Assembly (NCBI GenBank): GCA_944350485.1
Contig: CALVPE010000074.1
Span: 13,989 to 77,988 of the forward strand
Direction: 5' to 3'
DNA from: an uncultured Bacilli bacterium
GTDB taxonomy: Bacteria; Bacillota_I; Bacilli_A; RF39; UBA660
Length of the DNA stretch: 64,000 nt
Positions within the stretch are counted from its first letter, which is position 1. Each line of letters starts with the position of its first letter. Below the pieces are notes generated by a model that saw nothing but the letters and a program-made list of their open reading frames with translations, was not told the DNA's origin and searched no databases. Made by a program: the position numbers and the translations under genes. This document shows positions 12,867 through 46,364 of this stretch, one piece after another.

Positions 12867-12899
12867 ATAATATATAATTTTTTTAAATAATGGAAGTCT
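12867..12899 (-). promoter_or_regulatory. late-type promoter: AGACTTCCATT - 16 nt - TATTAT
   Basis: Minus strand AGACTTCCATTatttaaaaaaattataTATTAT, about 50 bp upstream of the gene starting at 12840. Confidence 0.5.
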
Positions 12900-12960
12900 A
12901 AAAAATAGTTTTTTATAACAAAAAAGGCTTGTAAAAAACAAGCCTAACAAAAGTTATAAA

Positions 12961-13167
12961 TTATTTAGCATTATCTATTTTCTTTTGATCTGCTTTTGTA
13001 TTTATAATTGAGAATTTAGATAATACTTTTATAATATTATCTAATACTGTATTATCCTTCATGGTTGGTGTAAGCCTTACAATAATACTAGCTACTGATA
13101 CAACACCACCAATAATTGCTAATAATTCATCCCAATGATTTTGAATAAAAGAAATTATTTCACTCAT
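12961..13167 (-). CDS. putative holin (single-TM small protein)
   Basis: 68 aa. TM AIIGGVVSVASIIVRL followed by LTPTMKD and a charged tail. Heads the membrane-protein/spanin block. Confidence 0.4.
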   Translation of the reverse strand: MSEIISFIQNHWDELLAIIGGVVSVASIIVRLTPTMKDNTVLDNIIKVLSKFSIINTKADQKKIDNAK

Positions 13168-13239
13168 TTTTTATAAGGTTATTAATATATAATATATTAT
13201 TAAATATATAATTTAATTTGTCAAGATAAATAATATTTG

Positions 13240-13267
13240 TTGACTTTAAAAAAAATAGTAATAATAT
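13240..13267 (+). promoter_or_regulatory. sigma70-like promoter (TTGACT-16-TAATAT) for the HU-like gene. A divergent minus-strand TTGACA sits at about 13225
   Basis: ttgtcaagataaataatatttgTTGACTttaaaaaaaatagtaaTAATAT. Confidence 0.45.
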
Positions 13268-13296
13268 TTAATTGTTATTAATAATTTTATAAAAAA

Positions 13297-13602
13297 ATGA
13301 ATAAAGTAGAACTTTCAAAACAAATTTCTAATAAATTTAATAATTTAGGTTTAACAGTTTCAAATACTGTTTCAAAGACAATTATTGAAATGGTAATTGC
13401 TAAAATCATTGATGAGTTAAATACTTATGGTGAAAGTAAAGTAGATGGTTTAGGAACTTTTAAAGTTAAAGAAGTTAAAAAGAGAAAATTCGTAATAAAA
13501 TCACCTATTGCTAAAAAAAGAATAGGAGAAGAAATTGAAATTGGTGGATTTAAAAAAATAACTTTCAAAGACTATAAAAGCACAAGAAAAAAATTAAAAT
13601 AA
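13297..13602 (+). CDS. HU/IHF-family histone-like DNA-binding protein
   Basis: GLGTFKVKEVKKRKFVIKSPIAKKRIGEEIEIGGFKKITFK, the beta-arm pattern of HU. Confidence 0.75.
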   Translation: MNKVELSKQISNKFNNLGLTVSNTVSKTIIEMVIAKIIDELNTYGESKVDGLGTFKVKEVKKRKFVIKSPIAKKRIGEEIEIGGFKKITFKDYKSTRKKLK

Positions 13603-13625
13603 ACAAATTAAATTATAAGAATAAA

Positions 13626-13666
13626 CTGGCATAAAAATACACGAAAAAAATGCCAGTTATTTTTTA
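13626..13666. terminator. bidirectional rho-independent terminator between the convergent HU gene and the minus-strand gene
   Basis: CTGGCAT-N18-ATGCCAG followed by TTATTTTTT on plus. The reverse complement is also followed by a T-rich tract. Confidence 0.45.
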
Positions 13667-13672
13667 ATAAAA

Positions 13673-13990
13673 TTAGTATTTTATTTTATTATTCTTTTTA
13701 AAAGATTTTTTGTTATATTTTGTTTCTTCTTCGTCTAAAACTTCATCTTCATCTTTATTATCTTCTGTTGTTTCATTTTGTAATGAATCTTCTACTAATG
13801 TTACATCTTTATTTTCTACTTTAAGATCATTATTTTGTAATTTAAGATCATTATGCAAAATAACAACATTTTTATTATGTTTAATAATATTATAAGTATT
13901 ATCAGTAATATCTTGAACACCTTTATATAATACTTTTCTATCAACTTGATTAGTTGTATAATAAATATCTTCTTTAATTTCTACTTTCAT
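13673..13990 (-). CDS. hypothetical acidic protein
   Basis: ORF only. Confidence 0.35.
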   Translation of the reverse strand: MKVEIKEDIYYTTNQVDRKVLYKGVQDITDNTYNIIKHNKNVVILHNDLKLQNNDLKVENKDVTLVEDSLQNETTEDNKDEDEVLDEEETKYNKKSFKKNNKIKY

Positions 13991-14040
13991 ATTAGTATTT
14001 TTTTTATTAATAAGAAGGGGAAAATATTTCCCCTTTTAAA

Positions 14041-14496: not shown

Positions 14497-14510
14497 AAAT
14501 TCTCCTTTAA

Positions 14511-15863
14511 TTAAGCTTTTTTAATAATAGTTAAACTATCAAATCCTTTTGCAGCACCACCACATCTTTGTCTCAACATATAATGAATTATTTCATTATT
14601 ATTTGCATAAGGGTTAAATTCAATAGTTCTTCCTGTTCTTTGAACAAAAGTGTAAGCTTTTGAGAAATTACCTACATAAACTGCTTTTGAACCGGTATCA
14701 GTAAATTTAGGACAATAGATAGATGTATAAACATTCATACCATTTATCATATAAACTGCCCCTTCTAATAACATATTAGGTTGAACTAATGGTCTACCTT
14801 GTGAATCTTTAACATCAAGTATTTCTGCAAGTGTCATAGGATTCATAACAACAACATTATTATTTGTTGACATAGTAATGTTAGCTTTTACAATAGCACT
14901 AATTAATTCTTCTGCATCATTTGCAACCATTGTTTTAAATTTACCAACAACATAAGGACTTTCTTTCTTTAATTCAGCTTCTGATAATTCATCATATTGA
15001 GAAATTCCTTTTGGTTTTCCTTGTGTAGCATTACCAGTAAATAAAGCTCTTTCAACAGCATTTGTTAAACTCTCATCAAGTAAAGGATATAAATATGTAT
15101 AAATGTTACCATTATAATCTTCTACTAATGTTCTTGTTAATGGAACAGATCCTTTAACAATTGATGTTGGAATAATTATTTTACCTTGGCTAACATTTGA
15201 TGTTTTATCAGAACCAAATTCATCTTCCCAAAAACCTTCATTAGAAGCATCAGAAGCTAAAACTTCTGCTTGGTTTGTAGAAGTAGACACCTTTTCAACT
15301 AAATCATATAAACATTTTTTAGTCTTATTTGCGGTATAGTCTGGTAATTTTTTAGCTGGTGTGATACCAAAACCACCATCACTTCCTACATATGTACTTT
15401 GTGCTTGTGCTTTTATATTTAAATCTAATACTGGAAATTGTGTAGATGTAACATCTTGCATAGCAGATTTAACATACTTTTTTTCCATATCTTCATTAGC
15501 TAAATTCATACTTTTAGCTAACATTTTAGCACATTTTTCAGCATTTTCAAGATATTCAGATTTTATTTCTGCTTTACCAGATGCAAAATCTCTTAATACT
15601 TGATCAAGATTTGATAAATATTTTTTTTGTATTTCATCATTGCCTTGATCATTTTTAATAGAAACTTTATAAAAATCGCTAATTTGTCTAGCATTTTCTA
15701 AATTTTCTTTTTTCAAATCATTGATCTCTTGCAATGCTTCATTATATTTTTTTTCCATATCAGCATTTTTTTGTTCTAATGCTTCAATTTTTTTTACATT
15801 GTCTTCTTTGAAGCTTTTTACTTCATCAACAATATTTTTTATATTTGTATTGATTTCTTCCAT
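14511..15863 (-). CDS. HK97-fold major capsid protein with N-terminal coiled-coil (delta/scaffold-like) domain
   Basis: About 100-aa charged coiled-coil, then a typical Phage_capsid core (...NPMTLAEILDVKDSQGRPLVQP...VYVGNFSKAYTF...). Follows the prohead protease. Confidence 0.7.
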   Translation of the reverse strand: MEEINTNIKNIVDEVKSFKEDNVKKIEALEQKNADMEKKYNEALQEINDLKKENLENARQISDFYKVSIKNDQGNDEIQKKYLSNLDQVLRDFASGKAEIKSEYLENAEKCAKMLAKSMNLANEDMEKKYVKSAMQDVTSTQFPVLDLNIKAQAQSTYVGSDGGFGITPAKKLPDYTANKTKKCLYDLVEKVSTSTNQAEVLASDASNEGFWEDEFGSDKTSNVSQGKIIIPTSIVKGSVPLTRTLVEDYNGNIYTYLYPLLDESLTNAVERALFTGNATQGKPKGISQYDELSEAELKKESPYVVGKFKTMVANDAEELISAIVKANITMSTNNNVVVMNPMTLAEILDVKDSQGRPLVQPNMLLEGAVYMINGMNVYTSIYCPKFTDTGSKAVYVGNFSKAYTFVQRTGRTIEFNPYANNNEIIHYMLRQRCGGAAKGFDSLTIIKKA

Positions 15864-15866
15864 AAT

Positions 15867-16979
15867 TTACTCTTTATTTTTTAATAATGAACTTAAATTT
15901 TTTAAATATTGATTAAATTTTTCTAACTCCTCAGGAGTTTTATCATTCTCATCAAGAGAATTTTCACTTGAAGATTCCTGTAAATCTTCTAATTCCTTTT
16001 TTGGTTTTTTTCTATTAGTACCACAAGCTTTTAATTCAGCAAGTCTACTAAAGAAAGTTTTAAAACCAGAATTCGTTAAACCAGACTTTTTTAAAAATCT
16101 TTCACAATCCTTAATGGTAAAGTTTTTAATAATATTTTGTTGATTTTCATAAGGTGAAATATAACTATTATCATTAGTGTTTTTTCTTATAATATCAAAA
16201 AGTAAATTTATTTTTTCTTTTAATTTTAATCTTTCATTTTCACTAATATTTAATGTATCAATATTATCTTTTCTTGAAAATTCAATAAGAGATTTAATAT
16301 TTATTTCTGGTTCACCTTCATTATTTATATCAATGAATAAACCATATTTTTTTTCACCATTAGCTAATAAATAAAAATCTTCATCCTTAAATTCTTCATT
16401 TTTTAAAATATTATTTAATTTTTGTTCAATATCTTTTTTATTAATAATTTTTTCTGGTGAACTTACTTTAATTTCATTAAGATTAATATTTTTAACATTT
16501 AAAATTTTTGCACTATCATTTGCTGGAAACATAACTAAACTTATTTCATGTAATTCAATATCTAATAATTCTCTTGTTTTATTGCTTTCGTTATAGAAAT
16601 CTTTTTTAACAATATATCCTATTGACATTTTTTTACATACACCAGCTTTTATTAAATTATAAGCTGTTCTTCCTTGTGGAATATTTAATAAAATTTTACC
16701 TTTTACAAATAATCCTATTTCATCTTCAAATATACTATTTATATCAAAAAATCCTATTGGATTATCAGTTTCATGAGACCATAGCATAGGTATATTTGTA
16801 TCATTTTTATTTTTTCTATTTTCTATGCTTTTTTGAAAAGCACCCTTTTTTACAACATCTCTATAACTATCTATTACTTCAAAAACAGAAGCATAACCTT
16901 CAAAATATCCATATTTGTCATCTTCTGTAAATTGTTTTATTTCAAAATTACTATCTAATTTTAATTCTTGCATTATCAA
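15867..16979 (-). CDS. HK97-family prohead protease (S78) with C-terminal extension
   Basis: GYASVFEVIDSYRDVVKKGAF...PMLWSHE signature. AGACTTCCATT motif about 55 bp upstream. Confidence 0.8.
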   Translation of the reverse strand: MIMQELKLDSNFEIKQFTEDDKYGYFEGYASVFEVIDSYRDVVKKGAFQKSIENRKNKNDTNIPMLWSHETDNPIGFFDINSIFEDEIGLFVKGKILLNIPQGRTAYNLIKAGVCKKMSIGYIVKKDFYNESNKTRELLDIELHEISLVMFPANDSAKILNVKNINLNEIKVSSPEKIINKKDIEQKLNNILKNEEFKDEDFYLLANGEKKYGLFIDINNEGEPEINIKSLIEFSRKDNIDTLNISENERLKLKEKINLLFDIIRKNTNDNSYISPYENQQNIIKNFTIKDCERFLKKSGLTNSGFKTFFSRLAELKACGTNRKKPKKELEDLQESSSENSLDENDKTPEELEKFNQYLKNLSSLLKNKE

Positions 16980-17000
16980 ATATATTAATATACTAATTTT

Positions 17001-17033
17001 AGTATAAAATATATACTTAAATAATGGAAGTCT
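17001..17033 (-). promoter_or_regulatory. late-type promoter: AGACTTCCATT - 16 nt - TATACT, upstream of prohead protease/major capsid genes
   Basis: Minus strand AGACTTCCATTatttaagtatatatttTATACT. Gene start at 16979. Confidence 0.5.
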
Positions 17034-17040
17034 TTTTTTT

Positions 17041-17076
17041 TAAAAAAATAAAAAACTTAGGAAATTTATTCCTAAG
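17041..17076 (-). terminator. rho-independent terminator of the RecT/exonuclease operon
   Basis: Perfect 8-bp stem CTTAGGAA/TTCCTAAG with a 5-nt loop, followed on the minus strand by TTTTTTATTTTTTT. Confidence 0.6.
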
Positions 17077-17150
17077 TTATAATATTAAAAAATTACGTTA
17101 CTAAAATCATTAAAAATATAAAATAATATTTTTTATTTGTCAAGCATTTT

Positions 17151-32488: not shown

Positions 32489-32521
32489 ATTATAGAAACT
32501 ATTATTAAATAATGGAAGTCT
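32489..32521 (-). promoter_or_regulatory. late-type promoter: AGACTTCCATT - 16 nt - TATAAT, upstream of a tail fibre gene
   Basis: Minus strand AGACTTCCATTatttaataatagtttcTATAAT. Gene start at 32462. Confidence 0.5.
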
Positions 32522-33155
32522 AAATATATACTATTTTTAAATCTATATCAATAATTAAATCTAAAAGCATTTTTATTGTATCAGTAAAATTATCCCTATT
32601 AATTAAAGCAAAAGGTATTTTTTTAGTAGCTAATACATTTTCATCATTAATTTCATTTGCTGTTGGTAATCTAACAACAACAGTATTGTCAGTAGCATCA
32701 AAAGAAGCAAATTTAAAAGGAAATTTACATGTAAATCTATTATTGTATTTACTAGTTTTAATATCGGAAATATAAATACTAATATCTAAATCAAAAATTT
32801 CATTTATAAAATCTTCTATTTGTCTTGATGTTGATATTCCAGAACTTGCTTTTGCAAATGCATTAATAATTTTATATTTTTTTACATTATTTTCTGGTTT
32901 TTCTTTAATATATTTTGAAATACCAAACATATCCCAATATTCATCTAAAAATTGGCTATTTTCATCTAATTTTAAACTATTAAATCTTTCCGCAAAATTT
33001 GCATCTCTTTGTCTAAAAACTTCCGCTATACAAGATAAAAACTTATATATATTTGTATTTTTATTATCTATGCCATTCCATAATATACCTTGTGGCATAG
33101 CATTATTGATAATTTTTCTCCATTCTTCTAAATTTTTTGCATTATAAACACTCAT
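32520..33155 (-). CDS. P2 gpI / Mu gp48-like tail protein
   Basis: About 210 aa, immediately after the baseplate J-like gene. Canonical position. Confidence 0.45.
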   Translation of the reverse strand: MSVYNAKNLEEWRKIINNAMPQGILWNGIDNKNTNIYKFLSCIAEVFRQRDANFAERFNSLKLDENSQFLDEYWDMFGISKYIKEKPENNVKKYKIINAFAKASSGISTSRQIEDFINEIFDLDISIYISDIKTSKYNNRFTCKFPFKFASFDATDNTVVVRLPTANEINDENVLATKKIPFALINRDNFTDTIKMLLDLIIDIDLKIVYI

Positions 33156-33156
33156 A

Positions 33157-34545
33157 TTATTCCCATGTTATTTTTAAAATTGGAAATTCATTGTATTGTA
33201 ATTCTATATCATCTTCTGGATTATTTAAAATATAATTATCTTCCAAAATATTACCATTTGAATCTATAACCTGATCTAACCAATATTGTATAGTTTTTTT
33301 AAATATTTTTTTTCTAAAATAACATACATTTTGATCATTCTGCATTTCTTTTATAGTTTCTTCAACTGCTTTTTTCATATCTAATGTATTGGCTTCATTT
33401 AATAAAGAAACATTAATTTCTATTTCCCTTAGTACTGGATTAACAACATTAACTTGATCTTCTGTTGGATTAATTTTATAAATAGTATCAACTAAATATT
33501 GTTTAATATCTTGTAATTCTGTATTTGATAGAGTTGTAAAATCATTTTTTATCATATATATAGTAGTATATCCACTAACAATAGTTCCATCAGTTTTTTC
33601 TGCTCTTGGAATAAAAATTAATGCATTAGTATATTTTCCATATTGAAATTCCCTTATTTTTAATATTATATTACTTCTATTCCATCCTTGTGGTATTCCT
33701 CTAATTCTTTCTAAAATTCTTTTTCTATAATCTTCCATTTCTTCTTCATCTTTTCCACCATTAATTCCATCATAGTATACATAGCATGTACTATCAACAC
33801 CTTGTTGTTCCACATTCATTTTTAAAGTTGATCCAGCAATTAAATTTTGATTTGATCCTGTATCACTTGATTCAACTAAAACAGAAGCGCTAATTATATC
33901 AACAAAAATATCACCAGTAGCAGTATTTGGTGCATCAGTGTCAATATCATAAGTAAAGCTATTTGTACTAATAGTAGTTATTTTAAAATTTTCTTTATTA
34001 TATTGTTCTTCATTAGCTCCATATATTCTGCTAATAGGCATGCCACTAGCTGTTTTAAAATCTTGTGATAATACCACTGTTGCTTTTCCTTGTGAACTTG
34101 TTAAACTTTTAACTTGTATAGTACTTTTTGATATAACAACAGTTTCTTGTGTTAAATAATTATTTCCATTTGAAGATATTTGCGTTCCTTGCATTATTGA
34201 TCCACCTTCTATTCCAGTAAATATTATATAACCAGTAGCTGGTGTTGATGTATAATGATAAACCCCCCAAGTATTTCCATGAAATTCTTTTAAGGGAGTA
34301 TAATCAGCTGTTTGTGGAAAAAATTGTTTTAACAAAAATTCTGAATTAATATCATTATTGTAAGAAGCATTTGTTAACGTATTTAAAAAGGCATATAATA
34401 CTTTACCTTGAACTGTATTATAATCTATTGTTACAATTTCATTTGTAGAAGTATTTATTATTTTTTGTTCTTCCAATGACTGTTTAAAAAAATTTAAATT
34501 ACTTTGTAATAATTCTTCATAACTTTTTGACATATTATTTACCAC
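33157..34545 (-). CDS. baseplate J-like protein (P2 gpJ / Mu gp47 family)
   Basis: Size and position between the W/gp46-like and gpI-like genes. Confidence 0.5.
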   Translation of the reverse strand: MVNNMSKSYEELLQSNLNFFKQSLEEQKIINTSTNEIVTIDYNTVQGKVLYAFLNTLTNASYNNDINSEFLLKQFFPQTADYTPLKEFHGNTWGVYHYTSTPATGYIIFTGIEGGSIMQGTQISSNGNNYLTQETVVISKSTIQVKSLTSSQGKATVVLSQDFKTASGMPISRIYGANEEQYNKENFKITTISTNSFTYDIDTDAPNTATGDIFVDIISASVLVESSDTGSNQNLIAGSTLKMNVEQQGVDSTCYVYYDGINGGKDEEEMEDYRKRILERIRGIPQGWNRSNIILKIREFQYGKYTNALIFIPRAEKTDGTIVSGYTTIYMIKNDFTTLSNTELQDIKQYLVDTIYKINPTEDQVNVVNPVLREIEINVSLLNEANTLDMKKAVEETIKEMQNDQNVCYFRKKIFKKTIQYWLDQVIDSNGNILEDNYILNNPEDDIELQYNEFPILKITWE

Positions 34546-34957
34546 TTATTTTATAATTATATGAAAATTTATTATCGCTATTTATATTTTTATTACCTTT
34601 TATTGAAATATATAATTGATTAAAAGCACTATTAATTTCAATATTATTAAAATTATAAACATTATTTTCAACAAAATCTTGATTTAGGGCATTGTTATAA
34701 ATATTATTAACATAAGATATAACTTCTTCATCATTATATCTTGAATGATATAATTTAGTCCATGCATTATTTCCATAATATAAGCCATAACATCCTCTTT
34801 TTTGTCCAAAATTTAATGTATTGTCATAGTCATCTGTAAATAATGTTGCAGCTATACTAGTTTCTAATGTATCGTCTATTTTTAAACCACCATTGTCAAA
34901 AACTAAATCAAATATACCATTTTTATTTTGTTGCATTTTTAGATCTATAAAATCCAT
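34535..34957 (-). CDS. baseplate wedge protein (P2 gpW / Mu gp46-like)
   Basis: About 140 aa between the gpV-like and J-like genes. Confidence 0.45.
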   Translation of the reverse strand: MDFIDLKMQQNKNGIFDLVFDNGGLKIDDTLETSIAATLFTDDYDNTLNFGQKRGCYGLYYGNNAWTKLYHSRYNDEEVISYVNNIYNNALNQDFVENNVYNFNNIEINSAFNQLYISIKGNKNINSDNKFSYNYKISGK

Positions 34958-35577
34958 CAGCTAACTCCCCCTGTATTATCTTTACCACCTGTTACACCAA
35001 TATGTGTATGAATATCATTTATAACTTTTCCATTTACTGTCATTCCCAAAGGTGTTGTTATCATGCCTGTAATATCCATTTTTCCATTAATTGTTAAATT
35101 ACCTTTAATACTTATATCTCCTTCAATAGTAATATTAGGTGATTTAATAATAATATTATTTTCTGATATTAATTCTATTGTATTTTGACTATTAATGGAA
35201 GTCTTATTATTTGCTTTTATATATATTTGTTCTGTTCCATTTTCTTCAATTTTTATTTCATTATCATTTATTCTAATATAATTGTTAGTTTTAAAATTAC
35301 CAATAGCGACTTCATTTGGATTTGTATCTGGTTTATAATAATTATCAGTTGCTATACAAAATTTTTCACCAGAATTTTCCAAAAAAACATAAGCAATATC
35401 ATTTGTATCTGGCGTTGATGTAAAACCAACTGGATTGATGATATAAATATCACTTTTAATAAAATTTTGAGATTTTAATTCAAATTCTTTTATTTCTGGA
35501 CTTGAATAACCTATATATTTTATATTATAAGGTCTTTGATTTCTTTCTGTATCTTGTATTTTTATTAATTCTACCAT
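34957..35577 (-). CDS. baseplate assembly / spike protein V-like
   Basis: C-terminal ...INDIHTHIGVTGG resembles the gpV family His-x-His tip. Correct position. Contains an internal copy of the late-promoter motif. Confidence 0.5.
   Translation of the reverse strand: MVELIKIQDTERNQRPYNIKYIGYSSPEIKEFELKSQNFIKSDIYIINPVGFTSTPDTNDIAYVFLENSGEKFCIATDNYYKPDTNPNEVAIGNFKTNNYIRINDNEIKIEENGTEQIYIKANNKTSINSQNTIELISENNIIIKSPNITIEGDISIKGNLTINGKMDITGMITTPLGMTVNGKVINDIHTHIGVTGGKDNTGGVS
35182..35214 (-). promoter_or_regulatory. late-type promoter motif internal to the gpV-like gene: AGACTTCCATT - 16 nt - TAGAAT
   Basis: Minus strand AGACTTCCATTaatagtcaaaatacaaTAGAAT, inside CDS 34957..35577 and about 240 bp upstream of the next gene start. 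Confidence 0.35.
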
Positions 35578-35579: not shown

Positions 35580-37322
35580 TTATACCTTTAATAATTCCAC
35601 CTTTTTTGTCCCGTCTTTATAATAAATTATTTTAGTATTTTTTGTAAAATCTATTTTTTTAATTTTAGCTTCCTCTTTTTTCTTTTCTAATATTTTTTTA
35701 TTTTCTTCTTTTTTAAAATCTTCTGTATTTAATTCACTAGCATTATAAGATAATGGTGGTATTAATGTCAAATTAGTATAAGCTCCACTATCACTATCAT
35801 AATTTATTTCTAATTCTCCAACAATTAAAGATAAATTATTTATACCTTGTGCCGGTGAATTAACTATTACCTTTCTGTTTATTTCCCAAAATTTATCTTG
35901 TTTTTCTTCACAATAATTTACTTTCGCAAAATTCATATCTATTGTATATCCTATAACTTTTGCTTGTATTCTATAACTTTCAGCTCTCATAGCATTTATT
36001 TCATAATTTAATCTCCTACTAGCAGCATATTCTGTCAAATTTTCTTCAACAAAAATATTTTTTATATTTCCCATTAAATTTTGTCCTAAGTATTTACTTT
36101 TGTTAAAATATAAGTCTTTTTGTCTCATGGTTTCTATTGATTCTTTATCATATATACCCTGTCCATTAGCAGCTAAAAATTGTCCTTCTTTATTTCTAAG
36201 AATGTAAACAGAATATTCATTTGATCCGGAATATTCTTCCGTTAATTCTTCAAGGCAATTACTGTTATCTGTTCCATCATTTGTTACATAACCAGTTAAT
36301 TCCATAAAGGCATATGTGAACCATTTTGTATTTCTAGAAGCAGTATATAAAAATGGCATTTTAGTATATGACCAATTACCATAAGCTGGTATACTTTGTT
36401 TTAAATTATATTGCAATTTTAATGGATTATAAATATCTGCATCAATTCCAGGCCTATATAATAATAAAACATAAACAATAGTTTCTTTTGTATTATTTGG
36501 TTTTGGATAAATATATTGATCTACTAAATATTCTTTTATATCAGAATATAAACCTATACATTTTACAAAAACATTTATATTCTTTGTTATACTTTTTATA
36601 TAATCAAAAACCGTTTGGTCATAAGAACTTGTTCTTTTATTTTTTTTAGAAAAAACAGATATTTTTGTATTATATAAGTTAAATGGATCATATAAAACAA
36701 ATTGTATATATTTTTTTTCTAAATTACTTTTATATAATTGTCCATTTAAAATTATATTAAATATTTTATCTGATGTATTTTGTAATTCTTTTTTTATTTT
36801 CATTGTTTTACTATTATCAAAATATTTATAGGTATATTGTTTATTTTCACCTATTATTGTTTCTTTTCTAGTTTTTATTATAGGGGATAAATTTCTATTT
36901 TCTTTTATGCTTTCTATTGTTGGTTGATATGTACAAACAAAATTTTTTTCACAAGTATTTTTAATAAAATCCCCTAAACAATCACCACCCGTATATTCTT
37001 CTGATTCATATATATCGCTATTACATAATTGCCAACCATGTGTAGAACATTCACAAGTTATATAATTATTTTTTACTCTTCTGTTTAATAATATTCCACT
37101 AACATAGAAACAATCATTTACATAAACATCTATCTTTAATCCTAAAAAATTTGGTATATATGTTTCATATCCATTTTCATTAACAATAGGAATTGTAAAA
37201 GAAAAACTATCAGTTACTGTTGATATATTTTTTTTAATTGAAATACTTTTAGGATATAATATTTCATCAAATATTTTTATAAAAATTTTTCCTGCATATA
37301 AACTAGTAGCTTCTTTTTTCAT
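35580..37322 (-). CDS. baseplate hub / tail protein (Mu gp44 or P2 gpD-like position)
   Basis: Position between the DNA-circulation-like and V-like genes. Confidence 0.4.
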   Translation of the reverse strand: MKKEATSLYAGKIFIKIFDEILYPKSISIKKNISTVTDSFSFTIPIVNENGYETYIPNFLGLKIDVYVNDCFYVSGILLNRRVKNNYITCECSTHGWQLCNSDIYESEEYTGGDCLGDFIKNTCEKNFVCTYQPTIESIKENRNLSPIIKTRKETIIGENKQYTYKYFDNSKTMKIKKELQNTSDKIFNIILNGQLYKSNLEKKYIQFVLYDPFNLYNTKISVFSKKNKRTSSYDQTVFDYIKSITKNINVFVKCIGLYSDIKEYLVDQYIYPKPNNTKETIVYVLLLYRPGIDADIYNPLKLQYNLKQSIPAYGNWSYTKMPFLYTASRNTKWFTYAFMELTGYVTNDGTDNSNCLEELTEEYSGSNEYSVYILRNKEGQFLAANGQGIYDKESIETMRQKDLYFNKSKYLGQNLMGNIKNIFVEENLTEYAASRRLNYEINAMRAESYRIQAKVIGYTIDMNFAKVNYCEEKQDKFWEINRKVIVNSPAQGINNLSLIVGELEINYDSDSGAYTNLTLIPPLSYNASELNTEDFKKEENKKILEKKKEEAKIKKIDFTKNTKIIYYKDGTKKVELLKV

Positions 37323-38659
37323 ATATCAAATATTTTTATTTTACCACTAACATTTAAAATATCATCTATAATATTATTATTCAACAATAAAATATCTTCA
37401 AATAAATCTTCATTACCATAATAATCATAAACTATTTTATGAAGCGTTTGTGGTGTTTTAATTTCTAAATATTTTATATTATTTTTAGCAACAGCTTCTT
37501 CTAACAAATATTGTTTTGTTTCATTAAAACAAGAAAACAATAAATCTTTTATTTTTATACTTATACTATCATTATAATATAAATTATTGTACATTTCATT
37601 TATTTGTTTGTATAAACTTTCTATTTCTTCATCTGTATTAAAATCCACTTCTGTTGATAATTCCATAATATTTGTAAAATATACAATATTTGAACTATCT
37701 TTTATTTCTTTTTCCATTATTGCTTCTTGTAATTTATTTATATTATAATATTCTACTAATTTATCATTATTACTAGTTGAAAAGTCAAACATTGTATATA
37801 AAAATTTAATAGTATTTTTTGTATCATTAAAATAACTATAAATACCATCGCAAATTTCTTCTATTGTATCTACTATTTTACCTGGTGTTTTTGCAATATT
37901 GACTAATTGTCCATTTATATATTTTAACATGTTTAATATTCTTAAAGGTTCTTGTAACGTTGATACAAAAAAATTAATATTATCTTGTACTGTATTTAAT
38001 ATATTCTGAACTTTTGTTACATATGATTTAACTAAATTAGAATATTTTCTAAAACTTTTATAAATATTTTTTATATTTTCATTTGTAGTTGATAACAAAC
38101 TAGCATTTTTAGTATTATTAATTTTTTGCATAAATGAATTTGGTAATTCACCATTTTGTATTTCTGTTTTTAATTCATTTAAAATTTGTGATTTTAAATT
38201 TTTTATTTTATTTACATCAGCTTTTTGTTCTGTTTTGTAAGAATATTGTAAAGCGACAAATTCTAATGATTCTGTATTTAATCCTAATGAAAAATAACCT
38301 TTATTTGCACTTCTTAAAACACCATAAAAAATATCGCCATCAGGAAATTCTATTTTAACATTTTTACATTTTTCAGTATTTATAATATTTTCTAAAAAAT
38401 TTTTTTGTTCTAAAAAACTATTTTTTAATTCTTCTTTTGAACTATTCTCACCACTCTTATATATACCACCATATTTTATGGTTATTGAAAAAGTTGTTTC
38501 ATTAGGTCCCAAATATTGTATAACCGGTCTATATAATCCATTAATATTATCAATTACTAATCTTTTTCCTCTACTATTAGATATATCATCCCAGAGAAAT
38601 TCTCTATCATTTATTTTTATATAATTTTTATAATATTTATAAACCGCTGTATTTTCCAT
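37319..38659 (-). CDS. tail protein in the position of Mu gp43 (DNA circulation protein)
   Basis: Directly follows the tape measure gene. Size 446 aa. Confidence 0.35.
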   Translation of the reverse strand: MENTAVYKYYKNYIKINDREFLWDDISNSRGKRLVIDNINGLYRPVIQYLGPNETTFSITIKYGGIYKSGENSSKEELKNSFLEQKNFLENIINTEKCKNVKIEFPDGDIFYGVLRSANKGYFSLGLNTESLEFVALQYSYKTEQKADVNKIKNLKSQILNELKTEIQNGELPNSFMQKINNTKNASLLSTTNENIKNIYKSFRKYSNLVKSYVTKVQNILNTVQDNINFFVSTLQEPLRILNMLKYINGQLVNIAKTPGKIVDTIEEICDGIYSYFNDTKNTIKFLYTMFDFSTSNNDKLVEYYNINKLQEAIMEKEIKDSSNIVYFTNIMELSTEVDFNTDEEIESLYKQINEMYNNLYYNDSISIKIKDLLFSCFNETKQYLLEEAVAKNNIKYLEIKTPQTLHKIVYDYYGNEDLFEDILLLNNNIIDDILNVSGKIKIFDI

Positions 38660-38666: not shown

Positions 38667-41162
38667 CTAAATATTACTACCTAAATTTAATCTACTTCTT
38701 ACAGATACATCCAAATTACCACTATTAATATTTTGTGATTTAACCGGAAAATCTGCTACAACATCAACTCTTGCATAATTATTTTGCATTGATGATGAAT
38801 TTAAAACTAATGCTCTTGACATAACTTCTCTTTCCCTATTTTCTCTTTGTTTTTGTTTATTTTTATCATCAAAATATTTAAAAATTTTAAATGATAAAAG
38901 TGCTAAAATAATTAAACCAATTACATAAGGATTTAAAATTAAACTTAACATACTAGGTAATAATGATGTTATAGCTTTAGTAGTTCCACCAATTATTCCT
39001 GAAGTTTTATATCCTTTTCTATAATTTATAAGTGAAATTTTTTCCATTTTATTAAATGTCTTTTTCATATTATCAAAAGATTTTTTAAAATTATCCTTTG
39101 AAAAAAAAGACGAAAAAGAAAAAGCATTAGATATTATTTCTCCACTTATATCTCTATTAATTTTTTTATGTAAAATAGCTCCTGTACCTAATAATCCAAC
39201 CTTTTCTAGATTATTCATATGTCCTATTGAAGCAACTCTCTTAAATAAAAATAAAGTTTTTAAACCACCTAATATATTAGCAATTCCACTGATAGTAAAG
39301 AGAGAAGATAAAATTAATTGTAATGTATTAGAAAAATTTAATCCCTCTGAATTTATACTATCTAATGCATTCTCTAAATTTGAATAAGCTATTGATAATG
39401 TTAATACAGATGAACCTAATCCTATAAAACTTTGTTTTAAAAATTCATTTCTTAATGACATCATATCTAAAATTTTTCCTTCTTGGAAGGCTTTTTGCAT
39501 TGATGTTAAATATATCGTCATATCCTTTAATGATTTACTAGAAGTAAAAGTAATAGATTTAAAAGCTGCAAAACCAACTACTGATAAATTAATTAAAGGC
39601 ATTAATTTTGTAAATAGTTGTACTAATGATGTTAATGTTGATATACCAGATGTTAATGAATTTAAAATTGGATTAAATTCTGTTAAACCACCAGTTAATG
39701 ATAATTTAAAATCTTGTATAGCATTATTTAATCTAGATATATCTGCCCCTAAACTATAAATATATAAATTTTCTTTATTTCTAGGATCTAATTTAGATTC
39801 TTCAAAAACTGTTTTAAAAAATTCAGCTGTTGATATATTATTACTTCTTAAATAATTTTGTAAATCATCAAAATTCTTTAATGTATCATTAGCCATTTTA
39901 TTATAGCCTTTTAAAGCATATTGTAAAACTGGTGCTCTTAATGGGGTGTTACCTAATTGCCTATTAAATTCTTCTGCCGATAATGAACCTTTTTCAAGCA
40001 TTTGATAAAAAGCCCTTATAGCTCCTTGTTGTTCATCAGCTGTTGCACCAACTAATGTAAACATTTTCATCATTTCTTTATATGATGATAATGTATCATT
40101 AAATGTTATAGTACCTTTTGGAACAGCATTAGCTAATTTAGAAAATCCCTTTTCCATTTCTCCATATTCAACACCAAGTTCATTTGCATAGTTTCTTAAA
40201 TCTTTCATTAAGTTTTTAGCTTCAACTATATTTTGTGAAGATGAATTTTGAGAAAATTCTTCAAAATTTCCTAAAACTCTACCAAGCATAATTGAAGTTG
40301 ATTCAAATTCTTTTCTAACACTTACTATATCTTTTACAAAAGTAAATAAACTTAATGCTCCTAAATAAAGTCCAAAAGTTTTTACTTTTTCCATGAAATC
40401 GTCAAAAAAATCACCAAAATTTATTAATGGCTTTGAATATTGTTCAATATCTTTAATATATGTATTATCTATTATTTTTTTTAATTTATTATCTTTTGTA
40501 GTTAATTTTGAATATTCCCTTTGTTGTTCTTTTATTTCATTTTTTAAATTTTTTATTTTATCCAAAAATCTTTTATTTAAAATTTTATCTTCAAGTCTAC
40601 CAAGTTTTTGTATCTCTTTTTGTTGTTTTACTATTTCATTAGTTTGTTTCTTTAATTCTTTTATTTTTTCAATAAATCTTTTATCTAAAATATTACTTTC
40701 TAATATTCTAATTTTTCCTATTTGTTCATATTGTTTTTTATATTCAATAGTTTGCTCTCTTAAATCTTTTATTTTTTGTTTATTACCATCAACATCATAT
40801 ACTTTTTTTAATAATTCAGCAGAAGCATATGATTTTAAAGGAAATTTTTTTGATAATATTTTTTCTTGTTGTTCAGGTAATAAATTTGCAAATTCTTTTG
40901 TGGAAATAAAATTTGACATTTTTAAAAATTTATTACTATAAGTTCTAGCCATAAATTCTGGATCAGTAAAATTTTTCAAAAATGTGGCCATACCTTTTTT
41001 GCCAAATCTTCCATTATAAGAAGATAGTTCACCAAAAAATCTATTTTTATAATTTTTTATATTTAGATTTTTTAGTTGTTTTTGTAAAGTAGAAAAATTT
41101 TTAATTAATTTTTCTAATAATTTTGTATCAACACCAAATGTAACATCAACAGAACTAGCCAT
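38667..41162 (-). CDS. tail tape measure protein
   Basis: 831 aa. Coiled-coil N-terminal half and hydrophobic segments in the C-terminal half. Follows the chaperone pair. Confidence 0.65.
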   Translation of the reverse strand: MASSVDVTFGVDTKLLEKLIKNFSTLQKQLKNLNIKNYKNRFFGELSSYNGRFGKKGMATFLKNFTDPEFMARTYSNKFLKMSNFISTKEFANLLPEQQEKILSKKFPLKSYASAELLKKVYDVDGNKQKIKDLREQTIEYKKQYEQIGKIRILESNILDKRFIEKIKELKKQTNEIVKQQKEIQKLGRLEDKILNKRFLDKIKNLKNEIKEQQREYSKLTTKDNKLKKIIDNTYIKDIEQYSKPLINFGDFFDDFMEKVKTFGLYLGALSLFTFVKDIVSVRKEFESTSIMLGRVLGNFEEFSQNSSSQNIVEAKNLMKDLRNYANELGVEYGEMEKGFSKLANAVPKGTITFNDTLSSYKEMMKMFTLVGATADEQQGAIRAFYQMLEKGSLSAEEFNRQLGNTPLRAPVLQYALKGYNKMANDTLKNFDDLQNYLRSNNISTAEFFKTVFEESKLDPRNKENLYIYSLGADISRLNNAIQDFKLSLTGGLTEFNPILNSLTSGISTLTSLVQLFTKLMPLINLSVVGFAAFKSITFTSSKSLKDMTIYLTSMQKAFQEGKILDMMSLRNEFLKQSFIGLGSSVLTLSIAYSNLENALDSINSEGLNFSNTLQLILSSLFTISGIANILGGLKTLFLFKRVASIGHMNNLEKVGLLGTGAILHKKINRDISGEIISNAFSFSSFFSKDNFKKSFDNMKKTFNKMEKISLINYRKGYKTSGIIGGTTKAITSLLPSMLSLILNPYVIGLIILALLSFKIFKYFDDKNKQKQRENREREVMSRALVLNSSSMQNNYARVDVVADFPVKSQNINSGNLDVSVRSRLNLGSNI

Positions 41163-41163
41163 T

Positions 41164-41933: not shown

Positions 41934-41954
41934 GTATTTTTTCCTTTTTAATTA

Positions 41955-42380: not shown

Positions 42381-42389
42381 TTCTTCTCC

Positions 42390-43934
42390 TTAACTTATAT
42401 AACCAAATTTATAATTCATAAAAATTTCTCTTAATTGAGAATAAACTACAGTCTCTATTAAAGTACTTGTAATTTTACCATCAGCATAATCTTCAACAGT
42501 ATTATTTTTTAAGGCATTTAAGAATGTAGTTAAACCTTCTGGTTCTACAAACTTATATGATCTTTTAGTTTCTGAATCTGTTTCTTGACCAGAACAAACC
42601 TTATATCCTGTCTGACAATCAATTATAAAATTAGCCTTTGTAATTCCACTTTCCATTCTTTTATGTGCCATAGTTCTTTTTTGTCTATTAAATAAATAGC
42701 TTAAAAAACTAGAAACACATTCATCAAAAGCCATCCAATGGAAATTTTTATCTAAATTACCTTCACTATCTTTTGTGTATGTAGTTACTAAATCACCAAT
42801 AACTAATTTATTTTCTTTATTAATTGTAAATACAGAAACACCTGAATCATTAAGTAATTGAACTTCATCTCCATCTTCATTTTCTAACCATTCTTCACCT
42901 TCTTCTATTGTATATTTTTCTAAAATAGTTTCAGCTAATGGTAATGATACATTATTAGGATCACCCAAAGGAATTAGTGAATTTATTTTTCCAAAATTTG
43001 TTCCTTCTGTATAGCATAAATTTAATACACCAGCTATTAAAGAAGATAAATAACATGGTTGAATAATTATATGACCACAATTATAACCATCTTTATTAAT
43101 TTTCTTTAATCCCAATATTGTTTGTGAACTCTCATTTAGTCCTTCAGCTTGTTCAATTAAATTTTCTAATGTATCAACTTTGGTTTGTATCATTCTACCC
43201 CTTTTATCAACATTAGAATAATTTTGCCATTTCTTTAATTCATTAATAAAATTAGTAGTATCTATACCATCTTCAAAAATATATAATCTATTTTTTTCTT
43301 TTTTACTATTAATATAGTTAATTAATTCATCTGCAGTAGCACTATTTGTTCCAGCATTAATAGTAATTGAAGATGTTATACCTTCACCAATTATTTTTGC
43401 TTTAACTGGTGTACTTGCACCACATGAACCATCAACTCTTGAAGTAAATGTTACCTTTGTGTCTGAAGCAGAATAGTTAGTAACATCAAATGGTATATCT
43501 TCCCATTTTTTTGCTTCTGTTATAATAGCTTCCACTATTTGTGTAGGTGTAACACTACTTTCAAAATTTAAAGAAAAACTATGTATTTTATCAAAAAATG
43601 AAAAATCTACTTGAATAGCACTTGTAGCAGTTCCTTCAAATTCAACTTCAATGGTTGTTGCTGTTGCTTCTTCTGGCGTAGGTAAAACATCAACAGAAAC
43701 TTGGCATTCATATTCACTATCTGCCTCCAAATAAGCTAAGTACATACCATATAAAAAACTTCTTTCACCAGCTACATCACTAACTTGTTTTTTAGTTTTT
43801 ACAGATGGTAAATGAACTATTTCTTGTAAATTTTTACTTTTTTCAGCAGTACCAATTAATTTAACACTATAATCGGCATTTTGCTGACCTTGTTTTGTAG
43901 TAGTATAATTAATTTTTGCCATTATTTTCCCCAA
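42390..43934 (-). CDS. contractile tail sheath protein
   Basis: 514 aa. Sheath-like size, directly upstream of the tube, chaperones and tape measure. Confidence 0.6.
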   Translation of the reverse strand: MGKIMAKINYTTTKQGQQNADYSVKLIGTAEKSKNLQEIVHLPSVKTKKQVSDVAGERSFLYGMYLAYLEADSEYECQVSVDVLPTPEEATATTIEVEFEGTATSAIQVDFSFFDKIHSFSLNFESSVTPTQIVEAIITEAKKWEDIPFDVTNYSASDTKVTFTSRVDGSCGASTPVKAKIIGEGITSSITINAGTNSATADELINYINSKKEKNRLYIFEDGIDTTNFINELKKWQNYSNVDKRGRMIQTKVDTLENLIEQAEGLNESSQTILGLKKINKDGYNCGHIIIQPCYLSSLIAGVLNLCYTEGTNFGKINSLIPLGDPNNVSLPLAETILEKYTIEEGEEWLENEDGDEVQLLNDSGVSVFTINKENKLVIGDLVTTYTKDSEGNLDKNFHWMAFDECVSSFLSYLFNRQKRTMAHKRMESGITKANFIIDCQTGYKVCSGQETDSETKRSYKFVEPEGLTTFLNALKNNTVEDYADGKITSTLIETVVYSQLREIFMNYKFGYIS

Positions 43935-44133
43935 CTTTATTATTTACAAAAACCTTTTTTTGTGTATCTTTTTTATTATTATCAATTATAATTTTTAAAT
44001 CTCCATCTTGTTTTCTTCTTTCACAGAATGTTTTTAAATTATAATTGTTATCATCAACCAAAATAGTATCGTTCTTTTTATAAACTTTACCATCTGGCAT
44101 CTTAATTTTTTCTCTTTTTACTTTATATAACAT
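43909..44133 (-). CDS. small basic protein (first gene after a late-promoter motif)
   Basis: ORF. AGACTTCCATT about 55 bp upstream. Confidence 0.3.
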   Translation of the reverse strand: MLYKVKREKIKMPDGKVYKKNDTILVDDNNYNLKTFCERRKQDGDLKIIIDNNKKDTQKKVFVNNKVGENNGKN

Positions 44134-44163
44134 ATTTTTATTTAAATATTAATTTACATTACT

Positions 44164-44197
44164 ATTATAAAATATAAATATATCACAATGGAAGTCT
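44164..44197 (-). promoter_or_regulatory. late-type promoter: AGACTTCCATT - 17 nt - TATAAT, upstream of the sheath gene block
   Basis: Minus strand AGACTTCCATTgtgatatatttatattttTATAAT. Gene start at 44133. Confidence 0.5.
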
Positions 44198-44201
44198 AAT
44201 T

Positions 44202-45341
44202 TTAACAATCTAATTCAATTTTTGAAAAATTATTACTATCCCTATTAGTTATATCCATTTCTATATTATTTAATCTTACATCCATAATAGGTAATTTATA
44301 ATCATCAACAAAAGTTTGTATTCTAAATTCATATTGAAAATCAATAACACTTAAATCATTTTCTCTATTTTCTGCAAAAGAAGATTTAATAAATTTTATT
44401 TTTTCGGTTTTATCTATTAATAAATTTTTATCAGTTAAAAATATATTTTTTTCTCCAAAAATTTTATTAAAAACTTTATGTAATAAAAAATCTTGAAAAT
44501 CTCTTAAAATATATTTATTAATATTTCTATGCATAAAAAAAGTATATACATGAAATTTATAACTATAATAACCAACAGAAGTAAAATTACTAGCAGTATT
44601 ATTAACTTCGTCATCTAAAACTATAAAGCATGTTATTTGATTACTTTTTTTAATATTAATTATTGGTTTATTTTCCTTGGTTATTTTATCTTCTATAAGA
44701 CCATTTTGTATATTTCTACTGAATTGTGCTTTTGCATCTAAAAAATCATAAGCTGGAAAGATTCTAGTATTAAAGGTAATATACATATCATCTTTATCTT
44801 CAATTATAAAATTTAATTTTGTATCATCTTCTTGAAAAGAAAATTTATTTTTATCTAATATTTTTACTCTTTTTATTCCATTGCCTTTAAAATAATTATA
44901 TATATAAAAAAATGCATTTTCTACATTTGGATTATCTGTTGTATTTTGATTAACTTTTATTCTTAACTTAAAACCTGCATCTTGATAATCTTCTAAAACT
45001 TCAGTTTTAACATTATATAAATTATCTTCGCAACCTTGTATATTTATAAAAACTTTATCTTTTTTTGAAGGATCTTTTGTTTGATTATGATTTTGTTTTG
45101 AATATAAAAAAGCTTCATCAGATTTAATTTTCTCTATTTTTTCTATATCTATTCTTAAAGGTATGTTTTGTATAAAAAAAACAGCTTCGGTATCTTTTTC
45201 TAATTTTAAATCTTCTTTTGTAGTAACAGTAAAAAGTCCATCAATAACTTCTACCTTTTGAATATAAATTTTATCACTAAACATATCAGTTAATAGTGGT
45301 AAATATTTTTTTGCTTGGTTAACTAAAAATTCTACTTTCAT
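44202..45341 (-). CDS. hypothetical virion protein (neck / head-tail joining region)
   Basis: Position only. Confidence 0.3.
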   Translation of the reverse strand: MKVEFLVNQAKKYLPLLTDMFSDKIYIQKVEVIDGLFTVTTKEDLKLEKDTEAVFFIQNIPLRIDIEKIEKIKSDEAFLYSKQNHNQTKDPSKKDKVFINIQGCEDNLYNVKTEVLEDYQDAGFKLRIKVNQNTTDNPNVENAFFYIYNYFKGNGIKRVKILDKNKFSFQEDDTKLNFIIEDKDDMYITFNTRIFPAYDFLDAKAQFSRNIQNGLIEDKITKENKPIINIKKSNQITCFIVLDDEVNNTASNFTSVGYYSYKFHVYTFFMHRNINKYILRDFQDFLLHKVFNKIFGEKNIFLTDKNLLIDKTEKIKFIKSSFAENRENDLSVIDFQYEFRIQTFVDDYKLPIMDVRLNNIEMDITNRDSNNFSKIELDC

Positions 45342-45345
45342 ATTT

Positions 45346-45897
45346 TTACCAATTTTTTAAAGTTATTATACTTGCATTTGACAATTTTTTTTCTTCATTA
45401 AATTTTTTAATAGCATTATATAAGCCATAACCATAACTTGTTCTACCATTAATTAAATATCCTTTATTATCTCTATTTTTAAATAAATCTCTTTTATTAG
45501 AAACATATATTTTTTTGCCATTTTTTAAATATTCTGATTTATATTTTGCTCTTTCCGATGTATCTTTAAGACTAATATTAAAGTTTATGGTTTTATTATT
45601 ACTATCACTTCTTAAAAATGTAACATCTGATTTTAAACCTCTATATGTTCCTATATCACTTTTTCTTGACCTAATTGAGTTTGGTTCTCTTCCAATAACT
45701 TCTCCTAATGCTGATCTTCTATATCTAAATTTTATATATTTTTTTGTTATTAAATTTCCGGTTTTTTTTCCATGAATCATTTCATCTTTTGTAATTTTAA
45801 GAGCATTATTAGCAATATTTTCTGCTTCTATTCTAGCTACTTTCTTAATTTTATCATTAATTTTTTTTCTAAAAACAGACAGTTTTACTTGCTTCAT
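45346..45897 (-). CDS. hypothetical virion protein (head completion / tail terminator-like position)
   Basis: Position only. Confidence 0.3.
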   Translation of the reverse strand: MKQVKLSVFRKKINDKIKKVARIEAENIANNALKITKDEMIHGKKTGNLITKKYIKFRYRRSALGEVIGREPNSIRSRKSDIGTYRGLKSDVTFLRSDSNNKTINFNISLKDTSERAKYKSEYLKNGKKIYVSNKRDLFKNRDNKGYLINGRTSYGYGLYNAIKKFNEEKKLSNASIITLKNW

Positions 45898-46310
45898 TAT
45901 ATACCCTCATTTCCTTTTAATTGTTCATTACCCATTGTCATTAAAGAACATTTTAAAAACATTCCCATATTATCAACATTTTCTATATCTATAATTTTAT
46001 ACCTTATAGTTCTATATAAAACATAACATTCACAATCAATATTATTTCTATATGGTATAATCATTTCAGCATTTTTTATAGATTTAATTTTTTCAGCAAT
46101 ACCTAATCCATCTTCATCATATTCAACAAAATCAGGTTTTAAAACTTTCCAATAACAATTTACTTCAAATATTGTTTCAAATTTATTAACTACTGATAAA
46201 TCATCAAAATCATTATTAGACTGGTATCTTTTTTGTACCTTAACAGTATGTACCATATCACCTATATTATAAAATTTTTTTTCAGCAAAATTTGATTTTT
46301 TGAATCCCAT
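45897..46310 (-). CDS. hypothetical virion protein (head-tail adaptor-like position)
   Basis: Position. AGACTTCCATT about 45 bp upstream. Confidence 0.3.
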   Translation of the reverse strand: MGFKKSNFAEKKFYNIGDMVHTVKVQKRYQSNNDFDDLSVVNKFETIFEVNCYWKVLKPDFVEYDEDGLGIAEKIKSIKNAEMIIPYRNNIDCECYVLYRTIRYKIIDIENVDNMGMFLKCSLMTMGNEQLKGNEGI

Positions 46311-46331
46311 AATAAATTTGTTTTTTTTATA

Positions 46332-46364
46332 AAAATAACATAATTTTATTATTAATGGAAGTCT
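46332..46364 (-). promoter_or_regulatory. late-type promoter: AGACTTCCATT - 16 nt - TATTTT/TATAAA, upstream of the neck gene block
   Basis: Minus strand AGACTTCCATTaataataaaattatgtTATTTTTATAAA. Gene start at 46310. Confidence 0.45.

Follow-up and report, generated by a model that had tools for sequence, protein, structure and literature searches.

A conserved AGACTTCC box marks a candidate late promoter class in a clade of metagenomic phages

We have analyzed a 64-kb stretch of DNA (contig CALVPE010000074.1, positions 13,989 to 77,988; hereafter the window, with position 1 as its first base) that forms part of a metagenome-assembled phage genome of ~82.9 kb. The structural region of this phage carries a recurring box of 8 to 11 bases, AGACTTCC-ATT, whose conserved core is the 7-mer GACTTCC, with a purine or T at position 1. 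The interpretation that this box belongs to a promoter class is supported by strong comparative evidence from related sequences. In our preferred reading, to which we assign a probability of about 0.45, the box would be the upstream recognition element of a late promoter class specific to this phage clade, served by the host RNA polymerase holoenzyme together with a reader protein encoded by the phage.

The exact 11-mer, AGACTTCCATT, of which GACTTCC forms positions 2-8, occurs six times in the window, which has a GC (guanine plus cytosine) content of 22%. All copies are on the minus strand, the strand of the late genes, with their 3' ends at 12889, 17023, 32511, 35194, 44187 and 46354. In 100 dinucleotide-preserving shuffles of the window the mean was 0.04 copies; no shuffle held more than one and 0 of 100 reached six. 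An unbiased k-mer survey also returned AGACTTCCATT as the top over-represented GC-containing 11-mer of the window. Copies with one or two mismatches occur at chance level there, so that the box sites form a class of their own and do not grade into a degenerate family. A further ~18.5 kb of the genome was recovered, giving ~82.5 kb of stitched sequence, and held no additional copy on either strand. All six boxes fall within the structural region (12.8-46.4 kb), co-oriented with the structural and lysis genes, and the box is absent from the early, replication and accessory regions of the recovered genome. Two independent assemblies of the genome, of 82,865 and 82,896 bp, begin and end at different points, as would be the case in a circular or terminally redundant phage. 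The six putative late promoters, the terminator-like sites that adjoin two of them and the open reading frames (ORFs) behind them are listed here; lengths are in nucleotides (nt) and amino acids (aa).

12867..12899 (-): late promoter 1; box 12899-12889, spacer 16, -10 TATTAT at 12872-12867, predicted start ~12860; precedes ORF 12610..12840 and then a membrane/lipoprotein (lysis-like) block reaching down to ~11009
12925..12945 (-): intrinsic-terminator-like hairpin and T-run, 25 nt 5' of late promoter 1; ends a small sigma-70-type unit, 12961..13167
17001..17033 (-): late promoter 2; box 17033-17023, spacer 16, -10 TATACT at 17006-17001; in front of the gene of the prohead protease (15867..16979), whose start codon is at 16973, and that of the major capsid protein (14511..15863)
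17054..17078 (-): intrinsic-terminator-like hairpin after recT, 20 nt 5' of late promoter 2
32489..32521 (-): late promoter 3; box overlapping the TAG stop of ORF 32520..33155, spacer 16, -10 TATAAT at 32494-32489; precedes a 393-aa tail-fibre-like gene (31281..32462) and genes further downstream
35172..35204 (-): late promoter 4, intragenic, inside the gpV-like baseplate/spike gene 34957..35577; spacer 16, -10 TAGAAT at 35177-35172; would drive the gpW-like, baseplate J and gpI-like genes (32520..34957)
44164..44197 (-): late promoter 5; spacer 17, -10 TATAAT at 44169-44164; precedes a 74-aa ORF (43909..44133), the tail sheath (42390..43934), a tube-like gene and the tape measure protein
46332..46364 (-): late promoter 6; box directly 3' of the TAA stop of ORF 46365..47585, spacer 16, -10 TATTTT at 46337-46332; precedes genes of 137, 183 and 379 aa (44202..46310), a neck/connector-like block by position

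Each box has a -10 partner at a nearly constant distance. A TAnnnT hexamer lies 16 nt past the box at five of the six sites (TATTAT, TATACT, TATAAT, TAGAAT and TATTTT) and 17 nt past it at the sixth (TATAAT). The background rate of TAnnnT on the late strand is 0.0445 per position, and five of six at exactly +16 thus corresponds to P ~1e-6. With this spacing the box spans approximately -39 to -29, over the normal -35 position, and TTCCAT occupies the TTGACA register, which it matches at two of six positions, with an invariant CC where GA is expected. Four further conserved bases, AGAC, stand 5' of TTCCAT in this late class. An earlier sequence-only reading of the window had reported six copies of the 11-mer on one strand, far above chance, at the -35 position and each followed after 16-17 nt by a TATAAT-like hexamer. 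All of this holds: six copies are found against 0.04 expected, the six hexamers that it listed are all present and TTCCAT lies in the hexamer register at a fixed distance from the -10. The search of the whole replicon that it proposed added no new copies in the ~18.5 kb beyond the window.

The placement of the boxes with respect to genes is equally regular. At five sites the 3' end of the box is 44-54 nt from a start codon, and the box is intergenic or overlaps the stop codon of the preceding ORF. The earlier claim that five sites head structural or lysis blocks is therefore upheld; the sixth site, which that reading implied but did not describe, is intragenic. The predicted 5' untranslated regions are uniform, 15-24 nt long and composed of A and T only. 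None of the five first genes behind these promoters has a Shine-Dalgarno sequence, and a GGA/AGG-type motif is found upstream of only ~45% of the ORFs in the window. A scan of the window for terminator-like sites found 9, against 0.9 expected. Since two of these lie 20-25 nt 5' of late promoters 1 and 2, new transcription units must begin there. The other four boxes are in a 20-kb co-directional cluster that lacks terminators, where they would serve as internal re-initiation points.

The intragenic box at 35194 encodes K-T-S-I, spelled AAG ACT TCC ATT. Two of these codons are rare in the genome, AAG accounting for 9.5% of Lys codons and TCC for 2.8% of Ser codons, and of 64 Thr-Ser dipeptides this one alone is spelled ACTTCC. 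The gene that contains it is called gpV-like from a weak match to P2 gpV (E = 1.6e-4). The box and its rare-codon spelling are kept in every relative that covers the gene, which argues for selection on the DNA and not only on the protein.

Relatives of the phage were found by protein searches in ENA and Logan assemblies; the contigs L067, L068, L072, L074-L076, L078, L079 and L141 are among them. Searches for cultured or catalogued relatives gave no DNA match in the phage collection and only remote protein matches for capsid or terminase, and with the capsid protein as query IMG/VR, JGI metagenomes and GTDB genomes yielded no relatives. In six related metagenomic phages GACTTCC and its -10 are found again at orthologous positions; the proteins of these phages share only 38-70% identity (sheath, baseplate J or capsid), baseplate J reaching down to 38%. 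The flanks of the box and the spacer have diverged among these relatives. The orthologous boxes are as follows (contig:position).

Protease/capsid: L067:1201, L068:4213, L076:13890
Tail fibre: L072:21209, L074:6741, L078:3455, L076:11974; variant TAACTTCCATT in L075
Intragenic, gpV-like gene: L072:18540, L074:4063, L075:18624, L079:12794, L076:9395
Small gene and sheath: L072:9737, L075:9729, L078:9166, L076:1059
137-aa gene: L072:7596 (AGACTTCCTTT), L078:6987 (TGACTTCCAAA)
Upstream of terminase: L072:2176, L078:2480; variant AAGCTTCCATA in L075; the window phage has a TTGACT-type promoter instead

Column statistics over 26 sites of the clade, in which positions 2-8 of the box are invariant by the selection of sites while positions 1 and 9-11 and the -10 were unselected, show only two islands of conservation: the box itself and TAnnnT at +17 to +22 from the box end. 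The spacer and flanks are at background, and TAnnnT lies within +15 to +17 at nearly all of the 26 sites. Where 1.3 copies of GACTTCC would be expected on each strand, the relatives have 20 on the strand of the late genes and two on the opposite one. A weight matrix built from the relatives' sites alone returned the six window sites as its top matches, with scores of 22-25; the next match scored 18.6. As in the window, a hairpin and T-run stand immediately 5' of the protease/capsid box in L067.

Two relatives are informative about the limits of the motif. In L076, the most distant relative that bears the box, all four sites read (A/G)GACTTCC(G/C)T(A/G), so that positions 9-11 have changed together from ATT to GTA, CTA or GTG; such concerted drift would follow from co-evolution of the box with a reader particular to each genome. 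In L141, whose baseplate J is 33% identical, the GACTTCC box is missing, and the tail-fibre position reads AGAC-TTGACA-N16-TACAAT (L141:11992-12052). This canonical -35, in the same register and behind the same upstream AGAC, confirms how the register was assigned, and L141 sets the boundary of the clade. The conserved 11-mer of the sequence-only reading stands as six exact copies in the window, but the truly conserved core is GACTTCC, and positions 9-11 drift in the distant relative. Its proposal of a phage-specific promoter class is supported by the fixed -10, the sense-strand placement, the terminators and the conservation in six divergent relatives. Among viral contigs, 56 single matches to AGACTTCCATTATTTAA proved to be unrelated and due to chance, and two loci with two copies each (L018 and L045) have no proteins in common with the phage.

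A second promoter class in the same genome provides a contrast. TTGAC(A/T)-N16-18-TAnnnT was located upstream of each of the sets of genes to which TTGACA-type promoters had earlier been ascribed, namely the terminase, folD, the replication genes and the right-hand operon; it stands before genes of the early, replication and accessory sets. TTGACTTTAAAA, in which the -35 signature of this class is extended, occurs in 6 copies against 0.12 expected. The late -10s (TATAAT, TATACT, TATTAT, TAGAAT and others) match those of the TTGAC(A/T) class, and the two classes have the same -10 and the same spacing and differ in the -35 region only. A scan with a generic sigma-70 pattern was not enriched in the 78% AT window relative to shuffles (109 matches against 105 expected, and 204 against 194). 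The loci of this class that are referred to here are the following.

10639, 20046, 20963 (-) and 13240, 52142, 56815 (+): copies of TTGACTTTAAAA, at the heads of divergent early units
51714..51741 (-): sigma-70-type promoter TTGACT-N16-TAAACT upstream of the terminase; a late box is at the same position in relatives
51812..52684 (+): two-gene cassette (117 aa and 161 aa), divergent from the terminase, with a TTGACT-type promoter

A near-consensus promoter of the TTGACA type (TTGACA-N17-TATATT, 17143-17115 (-)) is found between recT and late promoter 2 and is followed after 37 nt by the terminator at 17078-17054. This promoter-terminator pair, at 17054-17143 (-), could form a small-RNA unit of ~50 nt. 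An identical 29-nt promoter recurs outside the window, at extended coordinate ~80061 (+), near a second TnpB gene.

A protein that could read the box was sought among all ORFs of the window and the rest of the genome (~82.5 kb of ~82.9 kb) by scans against Pfam, PHROGs and NCBIfam. No ORF matched a sigma-70-family (Sigma70_r2, r4) or extracytoplasmic function (ECF) sigma domain, even at lenient thresholds. MotA, AsiA and other known late regulators likewise gave no match, remote structural homologues of MotA/AsiA being beyond the reach of Pfam-A and PHROGs family scans. The earlier remark that no such factor is obvious in the window therefore extends to the recovered genome. The only DNA-binding families found were an XRE-type helix-turn-helix (HTH) protein, an IHF/HU-like protein and a GapR-like protein, and many small early ORFs have no detectable family. 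The 117-aa/161-aa cassette, which lies beside the terminase in four phages (the window phage, L072, L075 and L078), matches no family in the three databases; its products are speculative candidates for regulators. Profile searches of PDB sequences with the 117-aa family, the 161-aa family and a 263-aa protein that has two HTH-like segments gave no match. Single-sequence AlphaFold models of the two cassette proteins had pLDDT (predicted local distance difference test) scores of 43 and 59, too poor for fold searches. The IHF-alpha/HU-like gene (13297-13602 (+)) is on the opposite strand inside the late region, with a TTGACT-type promoter of its own, and it occupies this place in each relative whose contig spans the region (L067-L070).

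In the mechanism that we propose, the host holoenzyme with its primary sigma factor would read the ordinary TAnnnT -10, while a phage protein made early or in the middle of infection would read the box. This reader might replace or re-target sigma region 4, in a manner resembling sigma appropriation, or might act as a monomeric class II activator that touches sigma or the polymerase. Transcription would start ~7 nt past the -10, near 12860, 16994, 32482, 35165, 44157 and 46325 at the six sites, and the structural and lysis-like genes would fire only once the reader had been made. We infer the start sites, the late expression and the phage-encoded reader from the sequence. The lack of a sigma-70-family protein in the genome favours continued use of the host sigma at the -10; taken together with the host-like -10, it tips the balance away from a phage sigma and towards a small phage protein by which region 4 of the host sigma is redirected or supplemented.

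The closest parallel is found in T4, where early promoters are canonical sigma-70 promoters and where, in middle promoters, a MotA box stands in for the -35 and sigma-70 continues to read the -10 (PMC2988021). The MotA box, (a/t)(a/t)(a/t)TGCTTtA, is centred at -30, 12 +/- 1 bp from the -10 (PMC2988021). As in T4 middle promoters, a host-type -10 (TAtaaT) is kept here, and in place of the -35, at a fixed distance, stands a phage-specific box that is short and asymmetric. The T4 division into early and middle classes also resembles that of the TTGAC(A/T) and box classes, which differ in the -35 only. The box described here is nevertheless AGACTTCC and not TGCTT, it ends 16 nt (once 17) from the -10 so that its centre is at ~-35 rather than ~-30, and it marks structural (late) genes where the T4 boxes mark middle genes. 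The Pfam and PHROGs scans detected no MotA/AsiA homologue, and the host is likely to be a low-GC alphaproteobacterium rather than E. coli. Membership among the MotA/AsiA promoters was therefore rejected on sequence, spacing, temporal class and the lack of a detected homologue.

Other known classes show a more partial likeness. The promoters of SPO1 gp28 and gp33/34 and of T4 gp55 (T4 late TATAAATA) stand in several copies in front of structural operons and mark temporal classes. They are like the present class in that a phage-specific consensus, present several times per genome, marks a class of genes. To our knowledge, characterised phage sigmas specify their own -10, and the T4 late promoter has a -10 only. 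Such promoters have a -10 of their own and need a phage sigma-like protein; the present class has a host-like -10, and the scans of the genome gave no sigma-like protein. Promoters of the class II activators (lambda cII at PRE, PhoB at the pho box, phage Mu Mor/C, P1 Lpa) combine a poor -35 and a good -10 with a site that overlaps or adjoins the -35, as the box does. Their sites are repeats or dyads bound by oligomers; the box is a single, non-palindromic 8- to 11-mer, and no homologue of those activators was detected in the family scans. ECF sigmas have a consensus of GGAAC(TT) at -35 and CGT/TCAAA at -10, and (A/G)GACTT superficially resembles GGAACTT. Taking AGACTT as the -35 gives a spacer of 21 nt, no conserved CGT-type -10 is found at the ECF spacing (~16 nt) and no ECF sigma is encoded, so that an ECF-type promoter was rejected. 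Of the two elements of a canonical sigma-70 promoter, the sites have the TATAAT-like -10, but their -35 (TTCCAT) is not TTGACA-like. A literature search on the motif string returned primer noise only.

Several points weigh against the preferred reading. The phage-encoded reader is assumed rather than seen, with no Pfam match to MotA or AsiA, and the distance of the box from the -10 is 16 nt as opposed to 12 +/- 1 for the MotA box. Late timing and start sites are inferred for a phage that is known from metagenome assemblies alone. The TT at -35/-34 and the C at -36 are common to the box and to the phage's own sigma-70-type promoters, and part of the box may be degenerate -35 context. Finally, the orthologous sites in the relatives are not statistically independent.

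Other explanations of the box were considered. A highly divergent phage-encoded sigma that reads both box and -10, in the manner of SPO1 gp28/gp34 or T4 gp55, is unlikely but has points in its favour: a short, asymmetric, invariant 7-8 bp at -35 with a hexamer-equivalent spacing of 17 bp is the kind of target that sigma region 4 has, known phage sigmas can be very divergent, and the many small early ORFs of no detectable family would leave room for one. It is opposed by the lack of any Sigma70_r2, r4 or ECF match at lenient thresholds over ~82.5 kb, and by a late -10 that is indistinguishable from that of the host-type early promoters. We regard it as quite improbable that a host factor reads the box, whether a host activator or an alternative sigma, which in Rickettsiales-like hosts is essentially RpoH. 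The sigma-32 -35 consensus is CTTGAA, with which CTTCCA agrees at 4 of 6 positions at a roughly compatible distance from the -10; no phage factor was found, and the variant box of L076 could reflect a different host. However, the -10 is TATAAT-like rather than CCCCAT-like or CYTAT-like, the single GACTTCC in 18.5 kb of putative host DNA is inside the ndk coding region, and a class confined to structural genes bears the mark of a temporal phage programme.

The sites might also be ordinary sigma-70 promoters with a weak -35, the box being a site for a repressor or nucleoid protein (for example IHF/HU-like) that delays or tunes late expression. The retention of TT at -35/-34 with a good -10, the tail-fibre site of L141 (AGAC-TTGACA-N16-TACAAT) and the IHF-alpha-like gene (13297..13602 (+)), conserved inside the late region of the relatives that cover it, are all in keeping with this. 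Nonetheless it appears improbable, since CC in place of GA at -33/-32 removes key -35 contacts and unaided activity should be poor, the box is unlike the IHF consensus, and the site of a dimeric repressor is normally palindromic or repeated, which the box is not. Least probable of all is that the box is no promoter element but an RNA processing or translation signal in read-through mRNA, a mobile or homing remnant, or a methylation, packaging or recombination motif. Four sites do lie in the 20-kb terminator-free co-directional cluster, so that the box is also present in read-through RNA, and the first downstream genes have no Shine-Dalgarno sequence. Yet a TAnnnT partner at a fixed distance makes no sense for an RNA, methylation or pac signal, and placement is strict, ~50 nt 5' of start codons and behind terminators. 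A known RNA family was rejected because the window has no Rfam match, a repeated mobile segment because the flanks are diverged rather than conserved, and a tRNA-linked element because no tRNAs were found. Chi, methylation or packaging motifs were dismissed because they would not be tied to a -10 or to gene starts.

Temporal promoter classes are a route by which phages take over host RNA polymerase, and earlier readers (MotA/AsiA, gp55/gp33, gp28 and P23-45 gp39/gp76) have each been informative about polymerase mechanism. A phage-specific promoter class with a host-type -10 is of a known kind. Comparison across genomes yields a clean cis-element, with an invariant 7-bp core, fixed spacing and six conserved positions, in a phage clade that has neither a cultured member nor a recognisable transcription factor. 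We tentatively suggest that an undescribed polymerase-redirecting system operates in phages of uncultivated, very low-GC, gut-associated alphaproteobacteria labelled 'Rickettsiales', in which one or two small phage proteins would make the holoenzyme read AGACTTCC in place of TTGACA; the 117-aa/161-aa cassette is a possible candidate. The box can serve as a marker of late operons, as bait for the reader and as a test of sigma-appropriation-like mechanisms outside the T4-like phages. Should an ordinary divergent sigma or activator turn out to read the box, the class would be a routine entry in the catalogue of phage promoters; if the reader is a new polymerase-redirecting protein, the interest rises.

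The genes of the structural region and its neighbourhood that were assigned by family scan are listed here; the terminase contains an intein.

33157..34545: baseplate J
35580..38659: baseplate hub proteins
38667..41162: tape measure protein
42390..43934: tail sheath (phrog_165)
47588..48892: portal
49115..51688 (-): terminase

The terminase intein (49115-51688 (-)) is of the Hint/homing-endonuclease type. The DnaB helicase and the DEAD/ResIII helicase (22141-24180 (+) and 8322-10511 (-)) each have an intein-looking insert of ~250-320 aa between conserved domains. If both helicase inserts are inteins, this 83-kb phage has three.

Some genes give clues about the host. The folD gene runs off the left end of the window (1-565; full gene L062:2533-3390). 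It shares 98% nucleotide identity with a folD that adjoins ndk on a contig of an 'uncultured Rickettsiales' metagenome-assembled genome (MAG) from the same study (BRZ_MD__bin29, GC ~25%), and is 89% identical to the folD of a second MAG (BRZ_AG__bin83). The flanks of both MAG genes (L080 and L081) are bacterial and unrelated to the phage. Thus folD looks like a recently exchanged metabolic gene and is a strong host clue. The phage also encodes a GapR-like nucleoid protein (E = 1.8e-24), of a family typical of Alphaproteobacteria, and an XRE-type HTH protein whose best NCBIfam match is the Wmk male-killing family of Wolbachia phage WO (E = 3.6e-16); the two genes are at 24249-24500 (+) and at 67297-67662 of the extended genome (L057:13954-14319), respectively. 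Together with the folD match, these genes point to a very low-GC alphaproteobacterial host known from metagenomes, which is the likely host of this phage.

The remaining observations concern accessory genes, of which the first three sets are at the following loci.

1266-2561 (-): TROVE/Ro60-like protein
55170-56225 (-): RNA ligase
5639-7080 (-): IS200/IS605 TnpA and TnpB

The TROVE/Ro60-like protein has a vWA domain and is encoded together with the RNA ligase in this genome; no Y-RNA or other Rfam family was detected in the window. The IS200/IS605 TnpA and TnpB pair lies inside the phage, and the second TnpB is outside the window. Two paralogous hexapeptide-repeat (left-handed beta-helix) proteins, phrog_5070/7964, are encoded in the early right-hand operon, at 61525-62364 (+) and at 66406-67032 of the extended genome.

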